Positions 47,608 through 57,105 of a DNA stretch of 64,000 nucleotides are shown here, piece by piece; position 1 is the stretch's first letter; every line of letters begins with the position of its first letter. The notes under the pieces were generated by a model. The model was given only the letters and a program-made list of their open reading frames with translations, had not been told where the DNA came from and made no database searches. The stretch is taken from assembly GCA_964540055.1 (NCBI GenBank), contig CAZILC010000006.1, positions 8,228 through 72,227 on the forward strand, written 5' to 3'. Origin of the DNA: an uncultured Gammaproteobacteria bacterium (GTDB lineage: Bacteria; Patescibacteriota; Microgenomatia; Levybacterales; UBA12049). Position numbers and translations under genes: made by a program.

Positions 47608-48381
47608 TTACTTAAAATCTTACAGCTCAATATGAATGCAAATAACTACTGGAATACTTTAATTCCATTTCTTACCTCACATAATTTTGACATTATTAAT
47701 TTACAAGAATTAACAGGAAAAAACACAGTGAGTGGAAATATGAATTCACAAATCGATGTCTTTGAAGAATTACAAAAAATACTTTCTACTCAATACAACG
47801 GTGAACTTTCAATCAATACACGATACTCATCAGATCCCCAAAATTCATATATGGGAAACGCAATTTTTTATAAAAAAACATTTACCTTAAAAGGTGAACA
47901 TATTTTGACCCTCCATAAAAGAACTGAACCATTCCCTGCAGTACTTACTCACTATGAAGAATTAGGAAGAACTGCAATGCATTTAAAATTAGCTATTGAT
48001 GGTACAATCATTTCAATTATTAATGCTCATCTTGCCTGGGCAAAAACACCAGTTGAGGAGCCGCATCAAACAAAACAAGGAGAAAAATTCTTAGAATTTT
48101 TAAAAACAATTCACTTACCATTTATCCTAACAGGAGACTTTAATTTGGACCCTGATCAACCGCTAGTCCAAAAAATAAATAAATTGGCAAGAAATCTTAC
48201 AAGTGAATTTCATGTTACCAATACGTTAAATCCTCGAACTCATCGCGCAAAAGTACTTTTTCCAAAAGGAGTTGCAGTTGATTATATATATATTAGTAAC
48301 GATTTGAAAGTAAAAAATTTTTCAGTTATTGAGGAAGATATTTCTGATCATTTGGGATTGATTGCTGAAATAGAAATTTAA
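47605..48381 (+). CDS. Endonuclease/exonuclease/phosphatase (EEP) family protein
   Basis: ILQLNM...IINLQEL at the N-terminus, TGDFN, and a C-terminal SDH motif (DISDHLGL). Confidence 0.8.
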   Translation: MLLKILQLNMNANNYWNTLIPFLTSHNFDIINLQELTGKNTVSGNMNSQIDVFEELQKILSTQYNGELSINTRYSSDPQNSYMGNAIFYKKTFTLKGEHILTLHKRTEPFPAVLTHYEELGRTAMHLKLAIDGTIISIINAHLAWAKTPVEEPHQTKQGEKFLEFLKTIHLPFILTGDFNLDPDQPLVQKINKLARNLTSEFHVTNTLNPRTHRAKVLFPKGVAVDYIYISNDLKVKNFSVIEEDISDHLGLIAEIEI

Positions 48382-49385
48382 AGTAATCCCATTTTTTCTC
48401 TCACTTCTTTTACTGTCTCTTTAGCAATCGCGCTTGCCTTTTCATTCCCTTCTTCTATAATACGGTCAACTTCTTGAGGGTTGCTCTCCAGCTCTTTTCG
48501 TTTTTCTTGGATTGGTTGAAGTTGGTTGTAAATGGCTTGGGATAATTCCCTCTTTAAATCACCATATCGTATGCCTTCATGCTGATAGTCTTTTTCATAT
48601 TCTTTACGTTTGTCTTCACCTTGAAATAATTGTACAAAGGAAAGAAGTGCTGAAACTCCTACTGGCATTGCCTCAAGACTTCCCTTTCCAGAGTCAGTTG
48701 GAGCTTTAGCTAATTTTCCTTTAATAGTTTCCAAATCATCTGTAAGGTTAATAAAACTTCCCTCAACACTTTTACTCATCTTACCTTCCCCCGTCAAAGA
48801 TGGCACATACTCTCCAGTTGTTTTAAATGTCTGGGGTTCGGGAAAATCTGTTCCAAAATCTTGATTCATACGTCGGGCAATTTCTCTTGCAACTTCCAAA
48901 TGAGGTTCCTGATCAACCCCCACTGGCACTGATGATGCCTTATATGCCAAAATGTCAGCAGTCATTAAAATTGGATAATTCAGAAGAGCCATTGTTGAAT
49001 GTTGAGGATGTTGTTTTACTTTGTCTTTAAACGTTGGCAGATGCTGCATTTTTGCAATAGTTACGACGCTTGAAAGATAAAATGCCAATTCTGGATGATG
49101 AGGATTTGCTGCTTGCTGAAATAGTATACTTTTTTGTGGATCAAGACCTGCAGCAAGATAATCAACTATCACTTCCCGCCGATTTTTTTTTAATTCTTCA
49201 ACATTATATGGTGTCGTAATGGAATGCAAATCTGCAACCATATAGAGAGTTTCATAATCCGGATCATCTTGCAAAGCAAGCATTCCTTTAATAGCTCCTA
49301 GATAATTTCCCAAATGCAATCTACCTGTTGCGCGTATTCCTGATAAAACTCGTTTCTTCATACTGTTGTATTGTATGTCATCCAC
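48378..49385 (-). CDS. trpS: Tryptophanyl-tRNA synthetase (start 49385 or 49361)
   Basis: GIRATGRLHLGNYLGA (HIGH-type) and KMSKS (GEGKMSKSV) class I motifs. Size is typical of TrpRS. Confidence 0.95.
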   Translation of the reverse strand: MDDIQYNSMKKRVLSGIRATGRLHLGNYLGAIKGMLALQDDPDYETLYMVADLHSITTPYNVEELKKNRREVIVDYLAAGLDPQKSILFQQAANPHHPELAFYLSSVVTIAKMQHLPTFKDKVKQHPQHSTMALLNYPILMTADILAYKASSVPVGVDQEPHLEVAREIARRMNQDFGTDFPEPQTFKTTGEYVPSLTGEGKMSKSVEGSFINLTDDLETIKGKLAKAPTDSGKGSLEAMPVGVSALLSFVQLFQGEDKRKEYEKDYQHEGIRYGDLKRELSQAIYNQLQPIQEKRKELESNPQEVDRIIEEGNEKASAIAKETVKEVREKMGLL

Positions 49386-49390
49386 AAAAC

Positions 49391-50188
49391 TTATTCAATG
49401 GATAAGTCTTTGATAAATTGTTTTATTGATTCAGCTCTCTTATTTTTATTAGTTTTATTAATAACATCAATAATTGCACTTCCAACAATCGCAATATCTG
49501 AATAACCCCTTAGCATTTGAATGTGTTCTTTTTGCGAAATTCCAAAACCAACAGCAACTGGAATTGAAAAATATTTTTTTATTTTTTTAAGATAGGTCAT
49601 AAGTTGGGGATCCAATTCTTTTTTTGCGCCAGTTGTTCCTTGTTTCGCAGTGAAGTATACAAACCCTCTAGCTTGTGATGCTATTTTGCTAAGCCGTCCT
49701 TCTGTTGAGGCAGGTGAAACTACATAGATTGGATATAATTCGAACTTTTTTGCAAACGCATAAAAATGTTCATACGCTTCTTCATCAATCGGCATATCCG
49801 GAACAATCAAACCACCTGCACCTGCATTTTTTGCATCATGGCAAAATTTTCCAACACCATATCGAAAAATAGTATTATAATATGCCATAAAAAGAAGGGG
49901 TATACTAACTTCTGAAGAAAGCGTTTTCATAACTTGAAACGCATCTTTCACTTTTGTACCATTTGCCAGCGATTCTTCACATGCTCTCATAATAGTTGGC
50001 CCATCAGCCAGGGGATCTGAAAACGGAATTTGTAATTCGACAAAATCGGCCCCACTCTCAACCATTGTTTTAACAAGAGTTACTGTTTCTTCCAGACTTG
50101 GATAACCGATAACTACATGCGTCATCAGCCCCATTCGATTCTCTTTTTTTATTGCTATTAACTGTTGATCAATATTATTCATAACCAT
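49391..50188 (-). CDS. trpA: Tryptophan synthase alpha chain
   Basis: GADFVELQIPFSDPLADGPTI and the VGFGIS region. Confidence 0.9.
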   Translation of the reverse strand: MVMNNIDQQLIAIKKENRMGLMTHVVIGYPSLEETVTLVKTMVESGADFVELQIPFSDPLADGPTIMRACEESLANGTKVKDAFQVMKTLSSEVSIPLLFMAYYNTIFRYGVGKFCHDAKNAGAGGLIVPDMPIDEEAYEHFYAFAKKFELYPIYVVSPASTEGRLSKIASQARGFVYFTAKQGTTGAKKELDPQLMTYLKKIKKYFSIPVAVGFGISQKEHIQMLRGYSDIAIVGSAIIDVINKTNKNKRAESIKQFIKDLSIE

Positions 50189-51392
50189 TTTTTACTTCCT
50201 CTTTAAGAAACTCATAAAACTTTTTATCTTTAAAAGCTTTCGTCAGAATAAACAAATCCTTGTCTCCCCTACCTGATACATTTACAACAATTATTTTATT
50301 TTTAGAAAGAGACGGTGCAAGTTTTATTGCGTAAGCAACTGCGTGAGCAGATTCTAGAGCTGGAATAATTCCTTCAGTTCGTGCCAATGTTTTCACTGCA
50401 GCCAATACCTCATTATCAGATGCAGATACAAATGAAACTCTTCCAGAATCATGTAAATAACTAAGTTCCGGACCAATACCGGGATAATCAAGACCCGCTG
50501 AAATGCTATGTGTTTTTTGCAAATTTCCATCACTGTCTTGCAAAAAATATGATTTGTACCCTTCAACGACCCCCACTTTTCCGTTTAAAAACCTGACAGC
50601 ATGTTCCCCCACCTTTTTCCCTTTACCACCTGCCTCGACACCGATTAAGCTAACACTTTCTTCTTTTATAAACTTTGTAAATGCTCCCATTGCATTGCTG
50701 CCACCACCGACACAAGCTATTACATAATCCGGCAAAATTTTCTCCTGTTCGCGAAGTTGCTCTTTTATTTCTTTTCCTACAATTGACTGAAAATCACGAT
50801 TCATAGTCGGAAATGGATGTGGACCGAGCGCTGATCCAAGCAAGTAATGTGTATCTTGTACATTTTCTATCCAATCTTTTAGAGCAGCATTTACCGCATC
50901 TTTCAGTGTTTTAGTTCCTGCATCAACGGAAATAACCGTTGCTCCCAATTGCTCCATTAGAAAAACATTTGGACGCTGTCTGGCAATATCAACAGCTCCC
51001 ATATAAACAGTGCAAGAGAATCCTAATTTTGCAGCAACCGTTGCAGTTGCTACGCCATGTTGTCCAGCACCTGTTTCCGCAATCAATCTTTTTTTACCCA
51101 ATCTTTTAGCAATCAACCCCTGCCCTATGCAATGTGTTATTTTATGTGCACCTGTATGATTATGCCCCTCATTTTTTAAATAAATTTTTGCCCCACCCAG
51201 TTCTTTTGTTAGATTTTCTGCAAAAACAAGAGGAGTCGGTCTTCCAGAAAAGTTTGTAAGCAAATTCTTAAACTCTTTCTGAAACTTTGGATCTGTCTTG
51301 GCAGTCCCGTATTCTTTTTCCAATTCAATAAGAGCTGGCATCAACATTTCCGGTACATATCTTCCACCATATTGTCCAAAATGGCTTTTCAT
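50175..51392 (-). CDS. trpB: Tryptophan synthase beta chain
   Basis: FGQYGGRYVPE, HTGAHKIT (PLP lysine) and GGGSNAMG motifs. Confidence 0.95.
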   Translation of the reverse strand: MKSHFGQYGGRYVPEMLMPALIELEKEYGTAKTDPKFQKEFKNLLTNFSGRPTPLVFAENLTKELGGAKIYLKNEGHNHTGAHKITHCIGQGLIAKRLGKKRLIAETGAGQHGVATATVAAKLGFSCTVYMGAVDIARQRPNVFLMEQLGATVISVDAGTKTLKDAVNAALKDWIENVQDTHYLLGSALGPHPFPTMNRDFQSIVGKEIKEQLREQEKILPDYVIACVGGGSNAMGAFTKFIKEESVSLIGVEAGGKGKKVGEHAVRFLNGKVGVVEGYKSYFLQDSDGNLQKTHSISAGLDYPGIGPELSYLHDSGRVSFVSASDNEVLAAVKTLARTEGIIPALESAHAVAYAIKLAPSLSKNKIIVVNVSGRGDKDLFILTKAFKDKKFYEFLKEEVKNGYE

Positions 51393-51979
51393 ATTTCTAC
51401 TCCTTTCGCATTAATAATAAACTGTTTTATTTTCTGCAAATCTTCCCTGCCGTTTGTTTCAATTCCGGAAGCCACATCCACTGCAAATGGTTTCACTTTC
51501 TCAATTGCTATTGCTATATTATCCGGAGTCAAACCACCTGCAAAAAAAATAGCATTTTTTTCTGCCAGATCTTTTGCATATGTATAATCAACCATTTTCC
51601 CTTTTCCTTGAATTTTTCTATCTACGAGTAAAAATTGCGCATATATAGGTGTTATTTTTTGCATTCTGTTAATACTTTTTATTACCGGATAGTGTAACTG
51701 TTTGATGTATGTATCATCTTCATTCCCATGTAATTGAATATAATCCAAATTAAGTTTTTGTGCTATACTTTTTACTTCCCGTATGTCAGCATTTCTAAAT
51801 ACTCCCACAATTTTTATTTTACCTCTGATTTGATTAATTATCTTTAAGCTTTTTTCCGGGTCAATATATCGACCTGCTGATGGTACAAAATTAAAACCGA
51901 TAAATTCCGCACCTTCATTACTAGCAACAAGTGCTGATTCCAAACTTCGAATACCACAAATTTTTACTTTCACTTTCAT
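51389..51979 (-). CDS. trpF: Phosphoribosylanthranilate isomerase
   Basis: VKICGI...GAEFIGFNFVPS...QLHG...FAGGLTPDN pattern, and its position between trpC and trpB. Confidence 0.85.
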   Translation of the reverse strand: MKVKVKICGIRSLESALVASNEGAEFIGFNFVPSAGRYIDPEKSLKIINQIRGKIKIVGVFRNADIREVKSIAQKLNLDYIQLHGNEDDTYIKQLHYPVIKSINRMQKITPIYAQFLLVDRKIQGKGKMVDYTYAKDLAEKNAIFFAGGLTPDNIAIAIEKVKPFAVDVASGIETNGREDLQKIKQFIINAKGVEI

Positions 51980-52755
51980 ATTTTTAAATCATTTATAAAA
52001 CTTTTAATATCATTTGCTTGCATCAAACTTGTTCCAACCAAAATGCCATTAACTCCTGAATTTTTATATAATGATACCTCTTTGTGTGATGTAACTCCCG
52101 AAAATCCTAGTTTAATAAATTTATCTGGAATTTTTTCAATTAGCTTGCATGCACGTGAAATATCAACAGTAAGAGTTTCTAAATCTCTTGCGTTAACTGC
52201 GATAATATTTGTATTTGTTGTAATAGTTTTTTTTAAATCCTCATCATTATTTATTTCAACAACAGGTTCAATATGTAATGACTGACAAAGCGAAACAAAT
52301 TCACTCAATTGTTTATCATTTACTAGTCTGGCTATTAATAATAAAGCATCAGAACCGGCTCGTTTAGCTTCATAAATTTGCTTTGAATCAATAATAAAAT
52401 CCTTTTGCAATATTGGAAGCGCTACTACTTTTCTAACTTGTGCCACAGTTTCTATATCCCCCTTAAAGAAATGTCGCTCAGTTATTAACGATATAACATC
52501 AGCACCTACATCTTCGTATTGTTTTGCCCGATCTAAAAGATCATCGCGTGATCCTAAATGCAAATTTGAAGGTGATGCAAATTTTATTTCGGCTATAATT
52601 TTTAACTTATTTTTTTGTGTTTGAAATACTTCTAAAAACTTTACATTTTTTGCATATTGTCCCTCATGCACAACTTTTTTTTCAGTTTTATGAGATAATT
52701 CTTCTCTTTTGATTTTAACAATCTCTTGTAAAAAATTTTGATTTTTTTTAAGCAT
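51976..52755 (-). CDS. trpC: Indole-3-glycerol phosphate synthase
   Basis: IIAEIKFASPS, ISLITERHFFKG, ILQKDFI and AVNARDL motifs. Confidence 0.9.
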   Translation of the reverse strand: MLKKNQNFLQEIVKIKREELSHKTEKKVVHEGQYAKNVKFLEVFQTQKNKLKIIAEIKFASPSNLHLGSRDDLLDRAKQYEDVGADVISLITERHFFKGDIETVAQVRKVVALPILQKDFIIDSKQIYEAKRAGSDALLLIARLVNDKQLSEFVSLCQSLHIEPVVEINNDEDLKKTITTNTNIIAVNARDLETLTVDISRACKLIEKIPDKFIKLGFSGVTSHKEVSLYKNSGVNGILVGTSLMQANDIKSFINDLKI

Positions 52756-53764
52756 ACTTATTTGTCTCCTTTATAAGGTTTTGTAAAACATTTTTTGCGT
52801 GTCCTTTATCAATAGATTCTTCTGCCAATTTTATTCCTTGATGAACATCTTTTACCTTTCCGGAAACCAACAAGGCAAATGCACTATTCAATACCACAAT
52901 ATCGCGTCTGGCATCTTTTTTACCCGCTAAAATTTCCTTAAGAATTTCTGCGTTCTCATTCACATCTCCACCTTGTATTGTTTTAATTTTTGATTTTTTT
53001 AAACCGAATTCTTGTGGATCTATTTTTCTCCTGCTGATTATGTTCCCTTTGATTTCAAATATAGTTGTTGTTTCATGCAATCCGATTTCATCCAATCCAC
53101 TTTCTCCCGCAATAAGTATGAGATGTTTATAATCAAGATTTACAGCAACTTTTGCCAATTTTTCAGCTAACGCAATTGATGGCACACCAATAATTTGCCT
53201 TTTGACTTGGGAAGGATTTAAAAAAGGTCCTAGATAATTAAAAACAGTTCGTGTGCCAAGAGCCTTTCGTACTGGACCGATTATTTTCATTGCCGGATGG
53301 TAAATAGGTGCAAAAAGAAAAACCATACCGACAGCATCGAAAACGGCTTTTGCCTGAACTGGCGTAAGCGTAATAGTAACACCTAATTCAGATAAAACGT
53401 CTGCACTGCCGCATTTGCTGCTTGCTGCTTTATTACCATGCTTAATAACTGGAAGTCCTACCCCAGCAACAACTAATGCAACAGCTGTTGAAATATTAAA
53501 TGTTCCCAGACCATCTCCACCTGTTCCACAGGTATCAATTGCATTTATAACTTTTGGAAATGAAATACTGTGTTTGCGCATAACATGGATTAATCCGCTT
53601 ATCTCATCAATTGTCTCCCCTTTCATACGGAGTGCCACAAGCAGGGCACTCAGTTGAATTTCCGACATTTCTCCTCTTATACAACTATCTAAAAGAGATT
53701 CTATTTCAAAAGATTTCAAATCTTTTTTTTCAATTAATTTTTCAAGTAAATAAGTATCATTCAT
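52748..53764 (-). CDS. trpD: Anthranilate phosphoribosyltransferase
   Basis: DTCGTGGDGLGTFNISTA and KHGNKAASSKCGSADVLE signatures. Confidence 0.95.
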   Translation of the reverse strand: MNDTYLLEKLIEKKDLKSFEIESLLDSCIRGEMSEIQLSALLVALRMKGETIDEISGLIHVMRKHSISFPKVINAIDTCGTGGDGLGTFNISTAVALVVAGVGLPVIKHGNKAASSKCGSADVLSELGVTITLTPVQAKAVFDAVGMVFLFAPIYHPAMKIIGPVRKALGTRTVFNYLGPFLNPSQVKRQIIGVPSIALAEKLAKVAVNLDYKHLILIAGESGLDEIGLHETTTIFEIKGNIISRRKIDPQEFGLKKSKIKTIQGGDVNENAEILKEILAGKKDARRDIVVLNSAFALLVSGKVKDVHQGIKLAEESIDKGHAKNVLQNLIKETNKYA

Positions 53765-54362
53765 ATCTTTGTGTTAAAAAATTCTCAAGCATTTTTTTAC
53801 CGGCTTCTGTTGCAAAAGATTCAGGATGAAATTGTATTCCTTCAAGCGGCAATGTTTTATGCCGGATTCCCATTATTTCTCCCGTGTCCATTGCTTTTGC
53901 TGAAACTTCAAAACACTTTGGCAAACTTTTAGTTTCAATGATCAGTGAATGATAACGCATTACCTCAATGTCTTGAGGTATAGTTTTAAAAATACCTTTT
54001 TGATCATGAGAAATATTACTTACTTTTCCATGCATCGGTTTTATTGCCCGAACTACTTTACCACCAAAACAATACGCCATTCCCTGCATCCCAAGACAAA
54101 CTCCTAATACTGGAACTGTTTTACCAATCTCTATTATTACTTCTTTACAAACACCAAAATATGCCGGATCACTGGGATCCCCAGGACCAGGAGAAATAAC
54201 TATCTTGTCATACTTTCTTTTTTTAATTTGGTTCAGCGTAATTTTGTCATTGCGAAAAACATCAATAATGAAATTGATTTCTTTTTGTTGCAGTACCTCA
54301 CCAATGTATTGGTAAAGGTTAAAAGTAAAAGAATCGTAATTATCAATAAGTAACACATTCAT
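53757..54362 (-). CDS. trpG: Anthranilate synthase component II (glutamine amidotransferase)
   Basis: IDNYDSFTFNL, GVCLGMQ (catalytic Cys) and the FHPES region. Confidence 0.9.
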   Translation of the reverse strand: MNVLLIDNYDSFTFNLYQYIGEVLQQKEINFIIDVFRNDKITLNQIKKRKYDKIVISPGPGDPSDPAYFGVCKEVIIEIGKTVPVLGVCLGMQGMAYCFGGKVVRAIKPMHGKVSNISHDQKGIFKTIPQDIEVMRYHSLIIETKSLPKCFEVSAKAMDTGEIMGIRHKTLPLEGIQFHPESFATEAGKKMLENFLTQRYE

Positions 54363-55708
54363 GATTCCAATACCTCTCTCATAGCTGCTAATTTATTTTG
54401 AATTTCTTCATATTCTTTCTGTGCAACCGAATCTGCAACAATCCCTCCACTTGTTTGTGCATAGCCATAATTGTCTGAAACAAAAAATGAACGAAGAGCG
54501 AGCGCAAAAGTGCAATCACCATTAAATCCAAAATGTCCCACACCACCACCGTAAGGACCGCGAGCATCAGGTTCATTGGCATCTATAATTTTAATCGTTT
54601 CAATTCGTGGTGTTCCGCAAACAGTCGGCATCGGGAAATTACTTGCCAGACCTGAAAACATATCTTCATTCGGACGAATTAATCCTACTACTTCACTGGA
54701 AATATGCTGCACATGACTAAATTGTTTAATTGTCATAAGATTACGGACCTTTACTGTCCCAAATTTAGCAACTTTTCCGATATCATTTCGATGCATATCA
54801 ACAATCATTGTGTGCTCTGCTCGTTCTTTAGGATCATTGAGTAATTGCCGAACCAAACGTTGATCTTCTTTTGCATCTTTTCCACGCTTTATGGTACCCG
54901 CAAGTGGATTGCTCGTCATTTCACCATCCCTGAGTGAGAAAAGTAACTCAGGACTCGCACCAATTATTTTCTTATCACCGAATTTTACATAATACATAAA
55001 CGGTGAAGGATTAATACGTCGCAACCGTTCATATATCTGCAATGTATCACCGCTCACTTTATATTCTGTTTTAAAACCAACTTCGCACTGAAATGTTTTT
55101 CCTGATAAGATTAATTCTTTAACGCGGTTAACAATGGCTGCATGTTCTTCTTTTGTTAAGCTGTTTCTTATAAATTGAGCACTGAATTTTTGTGGTACAA
55201 TCTTTTTTTTCAGCATTTTATAAATAATATTGCTCCGGTCATTTTGATAATAAAAGTAAAAAACTTCATTGGTTAATTTGTCATAAACTAGTCCATCAGT
55301 ATAAACACCAAAAAGAAATTGATCGAATTTGTCATGAACTTTTGCATTGAGAGAAGTTTCAATATAATTAACTGCTTCATAACTCAAATATCCAACAAGT
55401 CCTCCTGTATATTCTCTGGTAATAGTTTTTTGTGGCATCATTTGTCGGAGAGCATCATAAGGATTTGAGACATGATATTGTATAGTATCTATCGTTAATA
55501 CATTTTCCTTTGCAGAAATTATGTTATCTGGATCAAATCCTATTATCGAATAACGCGAGAACTTCGCTTCCTCTCCAAGCGATTCATATAGAAAACATGT
55601 TGAGAACTCACTGTCAATTTTTCGAAACAATTCAAAAAAATCAATATCATCTGCTATTTTTGTATAATTCGGTTTTTGTCCGATTTTGATTTTTGGTAAT
55701 TTTTTCAT
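54359..55708 (-). CDS. trpE: Anthranilate synthase component I
   Basis: Chorismate-binding C-terminal domain (GASPELL, GTIKRG, PMPTVCGTP, RGPYGGGVG). Confidence 0.95.
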   Translation of the reverse strand: MKKLPKIKIGQKPNYTKIADDIDFFELFRKIDSEFSTCFLYESLGEEAKFSRYSIIGFDPDNIISAKENVLTIDTIQYHVSNPYDALRQMMPQKTITREYTGGLVGYLSYEAVNYIETSLNAKVHDKFDQFLFGVYTDGLVYDKLTNEVFYFYYQNDRSNIIYKMLKKKIVPQKFSAQFIRNSLTKEEHAAIVNRVKELILSGKTFQCEVGFKTEYKVSGDTLQIYERLRRINPSPFMYYVKFGDKKIIGASPELLFSLRDGEMTSNPLAGTIKRGKDAKEDQRLVRQLLNDPKERAEHTMIVDMHRNDIGKVAKFGTVKVRNLMTIKQFSHVQHISSEVVGLIRPNEDMFSGLASNFPMPTVCGTPRIETIKIIDANEPDARGPYGGGVGHFGFNGDCTFALALRSFFVSDNYGYAQTSGGIVADSVAQKEYEEIQNKLAAMREVLES

Positions 55709-55744
55709 AAATTAAAAATAAAAAACCTCTCGCTATGAGAGGTT
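55709..55744 (-). terminator. Intrinsic terminator/attenuator between the trpR-like gene and trpE
   Basis: Minus-strand RNA reads AACCUCUC-AUAGC-GAGAGGUU (perfect 8-bp stem), followed by UUUUAUUUUUAAUUU and then the trpE AUG. Confidence 0.7.
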
Positions 55745-55778
55745 CATTGTTATATTTATATACCTTTAAACACGACAA

Positions 55779-56063
55779 TCAGCCTCTCAAGGAAGACAAA
55801 TTGCGCCACCAAGTAGTTTTTTGAATATTTCCCCGTTGTATTTCTTGTGAACCGCGTGTCACAGTCGCGACACCAACACCGACCTTCTCGGCTATTTCAT
55901 GTTGTGCTGTGCCTTTTTTTAATAACTTAAAAATTTCCAAACGCTTTGGGAGTTCTTCCAATTCTTTCTGAGTTAAAAGCCCATGCAGCAAAGCATCCAG
56001 TTCTTTTTTATTTTTTACATGAATTAACGAATTAAGTAATTCTGAATATAACTGGTCATTCAT
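55779..56063 (-). CDS. TrpR-like (YerC/YecD-family) helix-turn-helix protein
   Basis: 94 aa. LTQKELEELPKRLEIFKLLKKGTAQHEIAEKVGVGVATVTRGS matches the TrpR/YerC HTH layout. It lies directly upstream of trpE and its C-terminus contains WW. Confidence 0.7.
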   Translation of the reverse strand: MNDQLYSELLNSLIHVKNKKELDALLHGLLTQKELEELPKRLEIFKLLKKGTAQHEIAEKVGVGVATVTRGSQEIQRGNIQKTTWWRNLSSLRG

Positions 56064-56082
56064 ACATACTATTATACTAGTA
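56061..56082 (-). promoter_or_regulatory. Leaderless promoter of the trpR-like gene embedded in a TrpR-operator-like palindrome
   Basis: Minus strand reads TACTAGTATAATAGTA-tgt-ATG. TATAAT sits at the centre of the near-palindrome. Confidence 0.5.
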
Positions 56083-56136
56083 TGAGATTAAGTATGCAAG
56101 GGGCAACTTTATTTATGCTTGCTGATAAAAATACGA

Positions 56137-56151
56137 TATAATACAACTATG
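56137..56151 (+). promoter_or_regulatory. -10 box with leaderless ATG (rsmB-like)
   Basis: TATAAT-acaact-ATG. Confidence 0.45.
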
Positions 56152-57105
56152 GATCAATGTAACAATCTACCTTCTCAATTGATTAATCGATGGGAAAATC
56201 TTTTTACTGAAAAAGAATATAAAAAATTATTATTCGTGTTAACAAATAAGTTAATCGCTTCTTTTCGAATCAACACTATACGTACAACTTCAGAAATAAT
56301 TGAGAGAGAATTGACAAAACAAGGCTTCGAGTTTGAGAAAGTTAGCTGGTACAAAGATGCATATATAATGAAAAATAAATCTATACGCGATTTGACAGAT
56401 ACTGAAACATATAAAAATGGCTTTATATATATTCAAAATCTTTCGAGTATGATACCCGCGCTAGTGCTGGATCCGAAGGATGATGAAAAAGTACTGGATA
56501 TAGCAGCGGCACCGGGTAGTAAAGCAACACAAATTGCAGCACTTATGCATAATACCGGTGAATTGACTGCAAATGATATCAGCTTCAAACGGCTTTTTAA
56601 GCTAAAAGAAAATTTAAAACAAATGGGAGTTACTAACGCCAAAGTATTAAATCTTGCAGGTGAATCTTTCTGGAAAAAGCTTCCTGAGTATTTTGACAAA
56701 ACTCTTGTTGATGTCCCGTGTTCTATGGAAGGCCGCATTAAATGTGATGATCCGAAAACGTATAAGGACTGGTCGACAAAAAAAATCAAGCAATTGTCTC
56801 AAATGCAAAAATATCTTCTTCGTTCTGCAGTTTCTGCAACGAAAGTTGGCGGGACCATTGTGTATTCAACCTGTACAATGGCACCAGAGGAAAACGAAGA
56901 AGTAATCGAATGGGTTGTACAGAAATCGCCAAGTGCACTCGTGGTTGAAAAAATAGAAATAGCAAACTTACAAATGCAAAAGGGACTTACTTCATGGAAA
57001 AATAAACACTACAAATATACCAGTAATTGCCAACGAATCATTCCAAGTCAAACCATGGAGGGATTTTTTATTACAAAGCTTCATAAAACTGCATCGACAC
57101 TTTAA
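56149..57105 (+). CDS. RsmB/RsmF-type (NOL1/NOP2/Sun) RNA cytosine-C5 methyltransferase
   Basis: VLDIAAAPGSKATQIA (SAM motif), DVPCSMEGR and YSTCTMAPEENE (catalytic Cys motifs). Start set at ATG 56149, 6 nt after TATAAT. Confidence 0.85.
   Translation: MDQCNNLPSQLINRWENLFTEKEYKKLLFVLTNKLIASFRINTIRTTSEIIERELTKQGFEFEKVSWYKDAYIMKNKSIRDLTDTETYKNGFIYIQNLSSMIPALVLDPKDDEKVLDIAAAPGSKATQIAALMHNTGELTANDISFKRLFKLKENLKQMGVTNAKVLNLAGESFWKKLPEYFDKTLVDVPCSMEGRIKCDDPKTYKDWSTKKIKQLSQMQKYLLRSAVSATKVGGTIVYSTCTMAPEENEEVIEWVVQKSPSALVVEKIEIANLQMQKGLTSWKNKHYKYTSNCQRIIPSQTMEGFFITKLHKTASTL

Follow-up and report, generated by a model that had tools for sequence, protein, structure and literature searches.

A predicted autoregulated trpR gene in the Candidate Phyla Radiation whose 3' end may serve as the leader of a trp attenuator

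Control of the trp genes of Escherichia coli joins the repressor TrpR and its operator to the trpL attenuator, with trpR itself at a separate locus. Elsewhere in E. coli, at rph-pyrE, the full-length gene rph supplies the ribosome that controls an attenuator just 5' of the next gene. The rph-pyrE attenuator senses UTP via polymerase pausing, not a shortage of charged tRNA, and the rph protein is no regulator of its operon. In the trpRBA operon of Chlamydia trachomatis, trpR comes first and TrpR acts as repressor on the trpR promoter; an intergenic region follows and then trpB and trpA (PMC7755916). Within that intergenic region lie another promoter and an operator for YtgR, and the annotated TrpL is doubtful (PMC7755916). 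The small, frequently autoregulated proteins of the YerC/YecD group recognize a palindromic 20-bp operator, cacTTTAn6TAAAgtg (PMC9413887). The initial annotation of the locus described here placed its protein in the YerC/YecD branch and called the function of that branch generally unknown, which is dated, as YerC is the histidine repressor HisR (PMC9413887).

The locus lies in a window of 64 kb, the whole stretch of DNA that was analysed. As the initial annotation stated, its trpR-like gene heads a complete trp operon. The genes are trpEGDCFBA with trpS; the trpA-trpS gap is short, and no terminator was found in it. It is probable, from comparison with related loci, that this gene encodes an autoregulated repressor of itself and of the trp operon and that its 3' end contributes to an attenuator. 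The features concerned are listed in Table 1.

Table 1. Position of regulatory features and genes at the trpR-trp locus of the window
Feature	Position	Strand	Remarks
-35 hexamer TTGCAT	56094..56099	minus	Exactly 17-bp spacer to TATAAT
TrpR-type operator TACTAGTATAATAGTA	56067..56082 (16-mer, 56082-56067)	minus	Two 8-bp units; CTAG and ATAG centres, spacing 8 bp
-10 hexamer TATAAT	56071..56076	minus	Inside the operator
trpR-like gene, 94 aa	55779..56063	minus	Probably leaderless
Tandem Trp codons TGG TGG	55806..55811	minus	Residues 85-86; only Trp residues of the 94-aa protein
Segment 1, 5' half of the putative anti-antiterminator	55793..55806	minus	Starts on the third base of the second TGG
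Segment 2, TGAGAGG-C-TGA-TTGT	55775..55789	minus	Last trpR codons, stop and 4 nt; predicted partner segment 1 or 3
Central hairpin GTGTTTA/TAAATAT	55752..55773	minus	Closes the antiterminator loop
Segment 3, ACAAT..CCTCTCA	55736..55750	minus	Predicted partner segment 2 (antiterminator) or 4 (terminator)
Intrinsic terminator GAACCTCTC-ATAGC-GAGAGGTTT then TTTATTTTT	55714..55745	minus	Ends 6 nt ahead of the trpE ATG
trpE, trpG, trpD, trpC, trpF, trpB, trpA, trpS	48378..55708	minus	Pfam and NCBIfam; overlapping or closely spaced

The minus-strand stretch that carries the operator and the start codon reads cttgcatacttaatctcaTACTAGTATAATAGTAtgtATGaatgac. The initial annotation placed an E. coli-type TrpR operator around the -10 box of a leaderless trpR-like gene, and this arrangement is supported: TATAAT falls within the 16-mer and the trpR-like ATG (56063-56061) follows 7 nt on. 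The TTGCAT-17 bp-TATAAT spacing places the expected transcription start at, or adjoining, the A of this ATG, and on that spacing the mRNA from the operator promoter is probably leaderless for trpR. Comparison with the natural E. coli trp operator, CGAACTAGTTAACTAGTACG (confirmed in 5421 of 5426 E. coli genomes), agrees with the earlier view that the -10 hexamer occupies internal positions 7-12 in both. The two also share CTAG centres 8 bp apart, with the hexamer central. The 13/16 identity given initially had been counted against an idealised palindrome; against the natural operator it is 12/16, or 14/20 when flanks are included. The window operator agrees with the TrpR operator consensus TGTAcTnGTnnACnAgTACA (PMC9413887), and not with the YerC/HisR motif.

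Chance occurrence had been raised as a concern and was checked within the window, where TACTAGN5TAGTA with at most one mismatch has a single match, the operator itself, against a mean of 0.47 in shuffles. With a weight matrix derived from the operators of 97 orthologous loci the window site scores 30 bits, and the window contains no second site of 10 bits or more; 645 kb of sequence flanking the related loci yielded only about four weak extra sites. The conservation in related genomes that the initial annotation had proposed to look for was found, the operator being present ahead of the orthologous gene in 99/99 related loci, mostly from Patescibacteria (CPR), with at least 12/16 matches and in most cases 16/16. 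Among 97 of these loci the -10 slot is TATAAT in 41 and TATACT in 35, the -35 slot is TTGACA or TTGCAT, mostly at 17-bp spacing, and the distance from operator to ATG is 3 nt in 53. In 44 of the 97 a third 8-bp TACTAG unit is added, at the same spacing as in tandem binding by E. coli TrpR (PDB 1TRR, a Foldseek match). That the palindrome is a real, deeply conserved candidate TrpR site is thus well supported.

The 94-aa protein matches Pfam Trp_repressor (PF01371) over residues 7-87 with 69.3 bits (cut-off 27). The best-scoring NCBIfam model is TIGR01321, the trp operon repressor equivalog, with 54.1 bits, which is under its curated cut-off of 67.25; TIGR02531 (YerC/YecD) scores lower, at 37.6 bits, also under its cut-off of 42.2. 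The AlphaFold2 model (pLDDT 91.9) has six helices, and in Foldseek it matches E. coli TrpR 1TRO best (TM 0.78). The top matches, 1TRO and 1TRR, both E. coli TrpR, have TM 0.76-0.79 over 87-93 aligned columns, and the HisR/YerC-type structures 3FRW, 3KOR and 3G1C are also found. These scores and structures do not favour the YerC/YecD placement. Thr31, Arg41, Arg70, Gly71, Ala66, Thr67 and Thr69 show little or no variation among 31 homologues and align with Thr44, Arg54, Arg84, Gly85, Ala80, Thr81 and Thr83 of E. coli TrpR, whereas two contact positions are changed in the window protein, Ile79 to Val and Arg69 to His. The Trp-pocket and DNA-contact residues of TrpR are listed in PMC9413887.

By sequence and model, the 94-aa protein belongs to the TrpR family: its predicted fold is that of TrpR, and the residues that contact Trp and DNA are conserved. 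It is no clear member of the YerC/YecD group. HisR has the Pfam family and the fold in common with it, but differs in its operator (TACTAGTATAMTAGTA here), in lying with his rather than trp genes, and in replacing Trp-pocket residues that are kept here. No HisR-type operator or his-gene context was found at the locus, the neighbours being trp genes. From the gene context and the conserved pocket residues we infer that the protein is an L-Trp-responsive repressor.

Orthologues at operator-bearing loci are approximately 43-94% identical to the window protein in the aligned part, and one scan confirmed at least 513 relatives. A metagenome scan with the single protein gave 12 loci and was complemented by nine exact-protein look-ups. 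The window is placed taxonomically by its neighbours among these relatives, which are labelled Levyibacteriota, Roizmanbacteria, Saccharimonadales and similar; many labels of metagenome-assembled genomes ('uncultured Gammaproteobacteria', 'Acidiferrales') look unreliable. On the same strand, trpR is followed by trp genes in at least 60 of 80 species-level loci, as a full operon, trpB, trpBA or trpS, and two more have tRNA-Trp in their place (at least 62/80 in all). Many CPR loci read exactly trpR-trpB(-trpA), and in many CPR hosts trpB or trpS alone lies downstream.

The earlier view that this is a genuine autoregulated Trp repressor is well supported, being strongly argued by the palindrome, its geometry and a trp-gene context conserved in approximately 100 loci. 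An L-Trp-bound dimer on the 16-bp palindrome would cover the -10 hexamer and abut the start, and so block RNA polymerase; this predicted blocking is inferred from the identical geometry of the E. coli trp promoter. As trpR is the first gene, the repressor would govern its own gene and everything downstream.

Between trpR and trpE there is an intrinsic terminator, which the initial annotation had passed over together with the attenuator-like switch at the trpR 3' end, and the operon is therefore not simply co-transcribed. The terminator folds at -12.5 kcal/mol (z -5.6) and the alternative antiterminator at -20.3 kcal/mol (z -4.9), a value reached by 0/200 shuffles. The 1:2 fold (55812-55770) is weak in the window, at -11.3 kcal/mol (z -1.4), and clear in relatives such as loci L011, L007, L055 and L003. 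The window has no dedicated short leader ORF; the tandem Trp codons sit within the 94-aa trpR ORF, 22 nt 5' of segment 2 (TGAGAGG) and 61 nt 5' of the terminator stem. Most related loci have a TGG 15-26 nt 5' of segment 2. At the gathering threshold Rfam gave no match in the window and nothing relevant in 19 related loci. The best match in the window is Trp_leader (RF00513), full length over 55718-55817, with 23.9 bits against a gathering threshold of 41; in this sub-threshold match the UGGUGGCGCA / UGGUGG codons line up with the Trp codons of the Rfam family. The E. coli leader shares the tandem UGG UGG and CGC, followed by 2:3 and 3:4 hairpins and a U-tract, together with a 1:2 hairpin whose counterpart in the window is weak.

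These elements suggest a layer of attenuation in which the ribosome at the end of trpR would set whether the terminator forms. With ample charged tRNA-Trp, the ribosome would reach the UGA and cover segment 2, segments 3 and 4 would pair, and transcription would stop short of trpE. Under Trp shortage, a ribosome halted at TGG TGG would cover segment 1 and free segment 2, which could then pair with the 5' arm of the terminator as the antiterminator, so that polymerase would read on into trpEGDCFBA-trpS. The C-terminal tail of TrpR would in this way act as the trp leader peptide. The scheme assumes that the first ribosome on the 94-codon leaderless ORF follows close behind the polymerase.

Comparison among relatives argues for such an arrangement. 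A terminator lies within 40 nt past the trpR stop in 29/31 loci with a Trp-containing tail, compared with 4/57 with a Trp-free tail. Where the tail is Trp-free and the terminator more distant, a distinct small ORF containing Trp is present at the trpR stop in 28/29 loci, and the same set of four segments comes after it; in the relatives with such a leader ORF, TrpR is short and Trp-free. The ORF end and the terminator arm co-vary by lineage, as TGAGAGG/CCTCTCA, GGGGGGTT/AACCTCCC, GCGGGATTG/TAATCCCGC, TGGCGGTAA/TTGCCGCCA and CGAGTGGCGT/ACGCCGCTCG. From the Trp codon to the terminator 5' arm, the folds of 57 loci have a median z of -3.1 against shuffles, with 82% below -2. A 7-nt complement alone is not rare (p approximately 0.09 per locus in single-locus shuffles), and the argument therefore rests on position, co-occurrence and compensation across lineages.

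In the hairpin set of 25 relatives, antiterminator pairing holds in 90.9% of cells, against 36-57% with slid partners, and the pairs of the central hairpin are kept in 95%, with G-C/G-U exchange. The close 'WW' group shows little covariation, with five pairs changed on both sides. MAFFT misaligned the 3' arm of the terminator where loop lengths differ, and a covariance model and alignment-free tests were therefore used. The covariance-model alignment held reverse-strand and chance matches; in the filtered subset of 53 rows pairing is 80%, against 34-57% when slid. In 28 distant rows it is 70% against 35-65%, the lower value being due to alignment noise.

A fused attenuator at the 3' end of trpR is thus a likely reading of these patterns. 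The mini-ORF of locus L061 ends NWWGNFSLLRG and that of L092 ends NSWWNNFSYLRG, while the window trpR tail ends TTWWRNLSSLRG. Because of this likeness, and because Trp-free relatives carry a separate leader ORF with the same hairpins, the trpR tail probably doubles as a trp leader peptide. The 94-aa form and the mini-ORFs would be linked by a fusion or a fission event, in either direction. AlphaFold2 models residues 84-92 as a helix (pLDDT approximately 88), and HMMER aligns the first Trp of the tail with Trp99 in helix F of E. coli TrpR, so that the tail may also be conserved for protein reasons. The idea of the tail as a simple add-on leader was dropped, as both results allow a helix F and hence dual use.

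The modelled helix and its Trp99-like residue would also suit a plainer and rather improbable account, in which the locus has only the repressor and operator, the hairpin serves as an ordinary terminator for a transcript of trpR alone, trpE is read from a promoter of its own, and the Trp residues have a structural role in helix F, with no attenuation. The weak 1:2 hairpin of the window is consistent with this, as is a weak promoter-like string, TTGTCG-18-TATAAC, noted by eye within 55778-55749. With only 6 nt between terminator and trpE ATG, however, transcripts initiated there would have their 5' ends at the terminator stem and would terminate nonetheless. A consensus promoter scan of the trpR-trpE gap listed no promoter, and an internal trpE promoter was rejected on both grounds. 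Also against this account, the ORF end varies in step with the terminator arm across lineages, the position of the terminator follows the Trp-containing tail, and Trp-free relatives have a dedicated Trp mini-ORF at the equivalent place.

Other doubts concern the repressor rather than the RNA. The DNA site could be right and the signal different, with indole, another amino acid or no ligand in place of free L-tryptophan. A switch of ligand is known in the TrpR family, YerC/HisR taking histidine (PMC9413887), and the TIGR01321 score below cut-off, the His in place of Arg69 and the many CPR hosts with trpB or trpS only would fit one here. This is nonetheless unlikely, as every recognisable downstream partner is Trp-specific (trp operon, trpB/trpBA, trpS or tRNA-Trp), the operator is of TrpR and not HisR type, and Thr44, Arg54, Arg84 and Gly85 are kept, most of which HisR replaces. 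It is more improbable still that the palindrome is no repressor site at all, and is instead an element of the promoter or of the leaderless start, or is bound by some unrelated factor, and is conserved on account of the unusual promoter. Some conservation would be expected anyway of a sequence with a -10 box inside it and a start codon adjoining, but the two-fold symmetry runs 5 bp past the hexamer in both directions with scarcely any variation, and 44 of the 97 loci have a third copy of the 8-bp unit. The motif is found only ahead of this one gene family, and it matches the site recognized by the family of the adjacent gene.

Read as repressor plus attenuator, the locus follows the same regulatory logic as E. 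coli trp control (PMC7755916). It differs in that trpR is first in the operon and would control itself through the promoter that it shares with the trp genes, the mRNA is apparently leaderless, the putative leader peptide is the C terminus of TrpR and not a 14-codon ORF, trpS is in the operon, and the RNA falls under the Rfam Trp_leader threshold. Compared with Chlamydia trpRBA, the intergenic region would be a compact attenuator read by the ribosome translating trpR. On balance, a CPR-wide tryptophan regulon based on a single compact module is favoured; in this module a leaderless, autoregulated trpR with a near-invariant E. coli-type operator would precede a ribosome-mediated attenuator. In the lineage of the window the C-terminal helix of TrpR, with its tandem Trp codons, would be the leader peptide, so that one ORF would sense free Trp as a protein and charged tRNA-Trp as a translated message; sister lineages would carry the leader as a separate overlapping mini-ORF. 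On the same reading, trpS and tRNA-Trp would also come under the module where the organism cannot make tryptophan.

How bacteria of the Candidate Phyla Radiation regulate their genes has hardly been explored, and full-text searches found no literature linking TrpR, leader peptides or attenuators to this group. The locus provides a candidate transcription factor with its exact operator, a -35/-10 promoter, a predicted leaderless start and a putative RNA switch, conserved in hundreds of genomes. The two-layer repressor and attenuator design of E. coli would then occur far beyond the Proteobacteria, with a likeness that extends even to the UGGUGGCGC codons of the leader, and would be compressible to the point where the repressor gene itself is the source of the leader peptide. 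This implies a testable prediction on the coupling of transcription and translation on leaderless mRNA. A further suggestion concerns the use of Trp control in reduced symbionts, where it may serve trpS, tRNA-Trp and the salvage of indole by trpB.

On the minus strand, the promoter-operator region of trpR reads cttgcatacttaatctcaTACTAGTATAATAGTAtgtATGaatgaccag. The trpR ATG comes only 7 nt after the -10 box, so the transcript should start at or beside the start codon, without room for a ribosome-binding site. The -35 hexamer matches TTGACA at only 3/6 positions, which explains why this promoter was missing from a consensus promoter scan. As in Escherichia coli, the -10 hexamer forms positions 7-12 of the operator 16-mer. 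The natural E. coli promoter-operator (TTGACAATTAATCATCGAACTAGTTAACTAGTACGCAAG...) lies beside trpL in 5421 of 5426 complete E. coli genomes, and the window operator is identical to the natural E. coli operator at 12/16 positions (14/20 including flanks). The E. coli-like operator proposed in the initial annotation is confirmed, although the count of 13/16 given there referred to an idealized palindrome. The operator also fits the gamma-proteobacterial TrpR consensus TGTAcTnGTnnACnAgTACA (PMC9413887). With one mismatch or fewer, TACTAGN5TAGTA has a single match in the 64 kb window (mean of 0.47 in shuffles). With a weight matrix, no second operator site was found in the window, and a further 645 kb of flanking DNA gave only some four weak sites, so the motif is specific to the promoter of the trpR-like gene. 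A divergent gene for an RsmB/RsmF-like rRNA cytosine-C5 methyltransferase shares an intergenic region of only ~84 bp with trpR, and is also the neighbour in most close relatives (L093-L097, L101).

Features of the window in and around the trp operon
Feature	Position	Strand	Remarks
RsmB/RsmF-like methyltransferase	56119-57105	+	probable ATG near 56148
-35 hexamer TTGCAT	56099-56094	-	17 bp upstream of TATAAT
Operator 16-mer	56082-56067	-	from sequence
-10 hexamer TATAAT	56076-56071	-	within operator 16-mer
trpR ORF, 94 codons	56063 (ATG)-55779	-	ORF reading
TGG TGG	55811-55806	-	only two Trp codons of trpR; 22 nt upstream of segment 2
Segment 2, TGAGAGG-C-TGA-TTGT	55789-55775	-	last trpR codons and stop; complementary to ACAAT..CCTCTCA
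Small hairpin	55773-55752	-	closes antiterminator stem (fold)
Segment 3, ACAAT..CCTCTCA	55750-55736	-	partner of segment 2; includes terminator 5' arm
Intrinsic terminator GAACCTCTC-ATAGC-GAGAGGTTT then TTTATTTTT	55745-55714	-	-12.5 kcal/mol, z -5.6; between trpR stop (55781-55779) and trpE ATG (55708)
trpS (tryptophanyl-tRNA synthetase)	48378-49385	-	after trpA; gap ~5-30 nt by start codon chosen

A homology search with the window protein retrieved 92 relatives, mostly metagenomic. Scanning one genome per species gave at least 513 confirmed loci, of which 80 were fetched; a further 22 came from metagenome contigs and exact protein look-ups. Named hosts are nearly all Patescibacteria (CPR), from the Levyibacteriota, Roizmanbacteria, Gottesmanbacteria, Daviesbacteria, Microgenomates, Paceibacterota, Parcubacteria, Peregrinibacteria and Saccharimonadales. 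Many MAGs with a clearly CPR-type locus are labelled 'uncultured Gammaproteobacteria', 'Candidatus Acidiferrales', 'Bacteriovorax' or 'Pseudomonadales'; these labels are probably placeholders or due to mis-binning, and several are plainly unreliable. One related contig has a reverse-transcriptase (RVT_1) gene ~2 kb upstream of trpR (L096:1-634).

The palindrome is conserved in related genomes, the 16-mer being present directly 5' of the orthologous gene, at 12/16 or better and mostly perfect, in 99/99 loci with upstream sequence. Near-invariance extends to 15 of the 16 columns, the exception being position 11 (A or C), which gives TATAAT in 41 loci and TATACT in 35. In the TATACT form, the whole site is the self-complementary 8-mer TACTAGTA repeated once in tandem, and a third copy lies 8 bp off in 44/97 loci; tandemly bound E. 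coli TrpR dimers have the same spacing (crystal 1TRR). A TTGACA -35 box at 17 bp is found in 41 loci, and the ATG lies 3 nt past the operator in 53.

The window protein scores 69.3 bits with Pfam Trp_repressor (cut-off 27), and falls below the cut-off of both the NCBIfam TrpR equivalog TIGR01321 (54.1 bits; cut-off 67.25) and YerC/YecD TIGR02531 (37.6 bits; cut-off 42.2). It is therefore no clear YerC/YecD member, and the original assignment to that family was wrong, the TrpR model scoring higher. Judged by sequence, it is a distinct branch, nearer to genuine TrpR than to YerC/YecD. Among sequences of solved structures, E. coli TrpR and a Staphylococcus aureus YerC-like protein match about equally (33 bits each). 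The Trp-pocket and DNA-contact residues of E. coli TrpR align with invariant or near-invariant columns in 31 homologues; Thr44, Arg54, Arg84, Gly85, Ala80, Thr81 and Thr83 are kept, while Arg69 is replaced by His and Ile79 by Val. A confident AlphaFold2 model (pLDDT 91.9) has six helices, and its best Foldseek matches are the E. coli TrpR-operator complexes 1TRO and 1TRR (TM 0.76-0.79). The description of YerC function as generally unknown is outdated: YerC is the histidine repressor HisR, with the operator cacTTTAn6TAAAgtg and most Trp-pocket residues replaced (PMC9413887). One related locus carries a second trpR-like gene on the opposite strand just past trpS (L065:6919-7128, minus strand; 41 % identity to the window protein).

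In the window, trpE, G, D, C, F, B and A, and then trpS, lie downstream of trpR on the same strand. No terminator lies in the trpA-trpS gap, and the operon probably ends with trpS. A census of same-strand downstream genes in 80 species-level loci found trpEGDCF(BA) in at least 12, trpB then trpS in at least 11 and trpBA in three; a further group has trpS alone, 0.1-2.6 kb downstream. Two loci have, instead of trp genes, a tRNA-Trp (CCA) on the same strand after trpR (L013:4378-4449 and L020:5115-5189). As this begins 10 nt past the attenuator terminator in L013, tRNA-Trp may itself be a regulon member. In related loci, the trpS genes that follow trpR are of two kinds, with 54-72 % and 31-38 % identity to the window trpS; the latter kind possibly corresponds to an archaeal-type TrpRS that has been reported in CPR (PMC5370408). 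Every recognizable downstream partner is tryptophan-specific, and it is mainly from this that we infer tryptophan to be the ligand of the window repressor.

The trpR-trpE arrangement has the same geometry as a classical trp attenuator, with a 1:2 anti-antiterminator, a 2:3 antiterminator and a 3:4 terminator. The antiterminator folds at -20.3 kcal/mol (z -4.9), matched by 0/200 shuffles; the 1:2 structure, between the stretch right after the Trp codons and the stop-codon segment, reaches -11.3 kcal/mol, with a z of only -1.4 in the window. A ribosome stalled at the Trp codons would cover segment 1 and leave segment 2 free for the antiterminator; a ribosome at the trpR stop codon would cover segment 2, and the terminator would form. 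This assumes that the first ribosome stays close behind the polymerase along the 94 codons of the leaderless message. The trpR 3' end is likely to be a Trp-sensing attenuator; both the transcription start site and termination at trpR-trpE are predictions. The best Rfam match of the region is RF00513 Trp_leader, over its full length (55718-55817), with UGGUGGCGCA placed on the model's Trp codons. At 23.9 bits (E-value 0.015 in a 501-nt search), this match stays below the gathering score of 41, which none of the related loci searched reached; the region resembles this family but is no member.

Co-occurrence was assessed in 100 non-redundant loci. In 31, the tail contains Trp (WW...RG or GWR...GG type), and 29 of these have a terminator within 40 nt past the stop; of the other two, L052 lacks one, and in L001 an imperfect terminator can be made out by eye. 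Among 57 loci with a Trp-free tail (core protein ending near KGRFKNV), four have a terminator so placed. The ORF end and the terminator arm change together across lineages (TGAGAGG/CCTCTCA in the window's group, GGGGGGTT/AACCTCCC in L011, GGGAGGTTA/TAACCTCCC in L007, GCGGGATTG/TAATCCCGC in L046, TGGCGGTAA/TTGCCGCCA in L033, GGGTGGCGT/ATGCCGCCC in L048 and CGAGTGGCGT/ACGCCGCTCG in L065). In 25 close relatives, antiterminator pairs are kept in 90.9 % of cells, compared with 36-57 % for slid partners, and true covariation is limited to five pairs changed on both sides. A covariance model from the window's group places the element right after the trpR stop in ~53 loci. From the last Trp codon to the terminator 5' arm, 57 loci fold better than shuffles (median z -3.1; 82 % below -2), a median of 87.5 % of the arm being paired with upstream sequence in the best fold. 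In L003, L005, L083 and L086, a WW-tail trpR and attenuator precede genes other than trpE; the product in L005 (start MKHAIGIIGGMGPEA) looks like an Asp/Glu racemase, and trpS lies ~1.9 kb further on in L003 and L005.

A terminator 41-140 nt downstream is found in 29 Trp-free loci, and 28 of these carry a small ATG-initiated ORF containing Trp codons, which begins at the trpR stop or overlaps it (e.g. AAAAATGTATAG or TAAtATG). Examples are MKNNIDCVNFNWQNLSNREVSFVVI (L055), ..LLNWWWKKVYPRCGWRF (L048) and MKKIINSSYWWIINSFRRVDIFME (L079), and the same four segments follow these separate leader ORFs. The window TrpR tail, TTWWRNLSSLRG, is near-identical to the leader-ORF ends MNKTKAQKRTLNWWGNFSLLRG (L061) and ...NSWWNNFSYLRG (L092). 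The recurring 'NLS' residues are the translation of segment 1 (AACCTCTC), and 'LRG/REV' that of segment 2 (GAGAGG or GGGAGGTT). Either fusion or fission could relate the tail of the 94-aa TrpR to the separate ORF. AlphaFold2 predicts tail residues 84-92 as a helix (pLDDT about 88), and the first Trp falls opposite E. coli TrpR Trp99 (helix F) in the HMMER alignment. Instead of a fused-on leader peptide, the tail may therefore be a structural helix of ancestral origin, with Trp codons that were recruited.

In a third tail class, trpR ends ...GNFSNWR* (L010, L015, L016, L022, L026, L028, L030, L037, L045, L051 and L060). Here TGG CGA TAA gcca makes a tiny TGGC/GCCA hairpin just past the trpR stop, followed by a C-rich, G-poor tract (gccaccacttcatttcacatctaacc...), with trpB beginning 85-160 nt further on. 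The search for an intrinsic terminator past the trpR stop was negative in this class, which could use Rho-dependent or translational-coupling Trp sensing. Small ORFs ending ...GQGLVW(L/F/K)* lie 0-110 nt past the trpR stop in L012, L029, L039, L070, L072 and L080, with one Trp 0-4 codons before the stop and a conserved CAGGGGTTAGTTTGGCTC. A terminator scan after these ORFs found none; trpS is 0.6-2.6 kb downstream in L012, L029, L070 and L072.

A TrpR-type autoregulatory operator is thus very likely in the window, and its combination with a Trp-sensing attenuator is probable. The operator, leaderless start and autoregulated Trp repressor of the initial annotation stand; the family was misjudged, and the terminator and attenuator were missed. 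As in the Chlamydia trachomatis trpRBA operon, trpR is the first gene (PMC7755916). The operator and autoregulation would work like those of E. coli TrpR, and the attenuator like E. coli trpL. E. coli rph-pyrE is a precedent for a full-length gene as an attenuator 'leader'; there the signal is UTP, and the protein encoded upstream does not regulate the operon. In full-text searches, no paper was found that connects TrpR, leader peptides or attenuators to CPR or Patescibacteria. What is new here is the CPR lineage, the leaderless organization, an operon that takes in trpS and at some loci tRNA-Trp, and a leader peptide putatively supplied by the C-terminus of the repressor itself.
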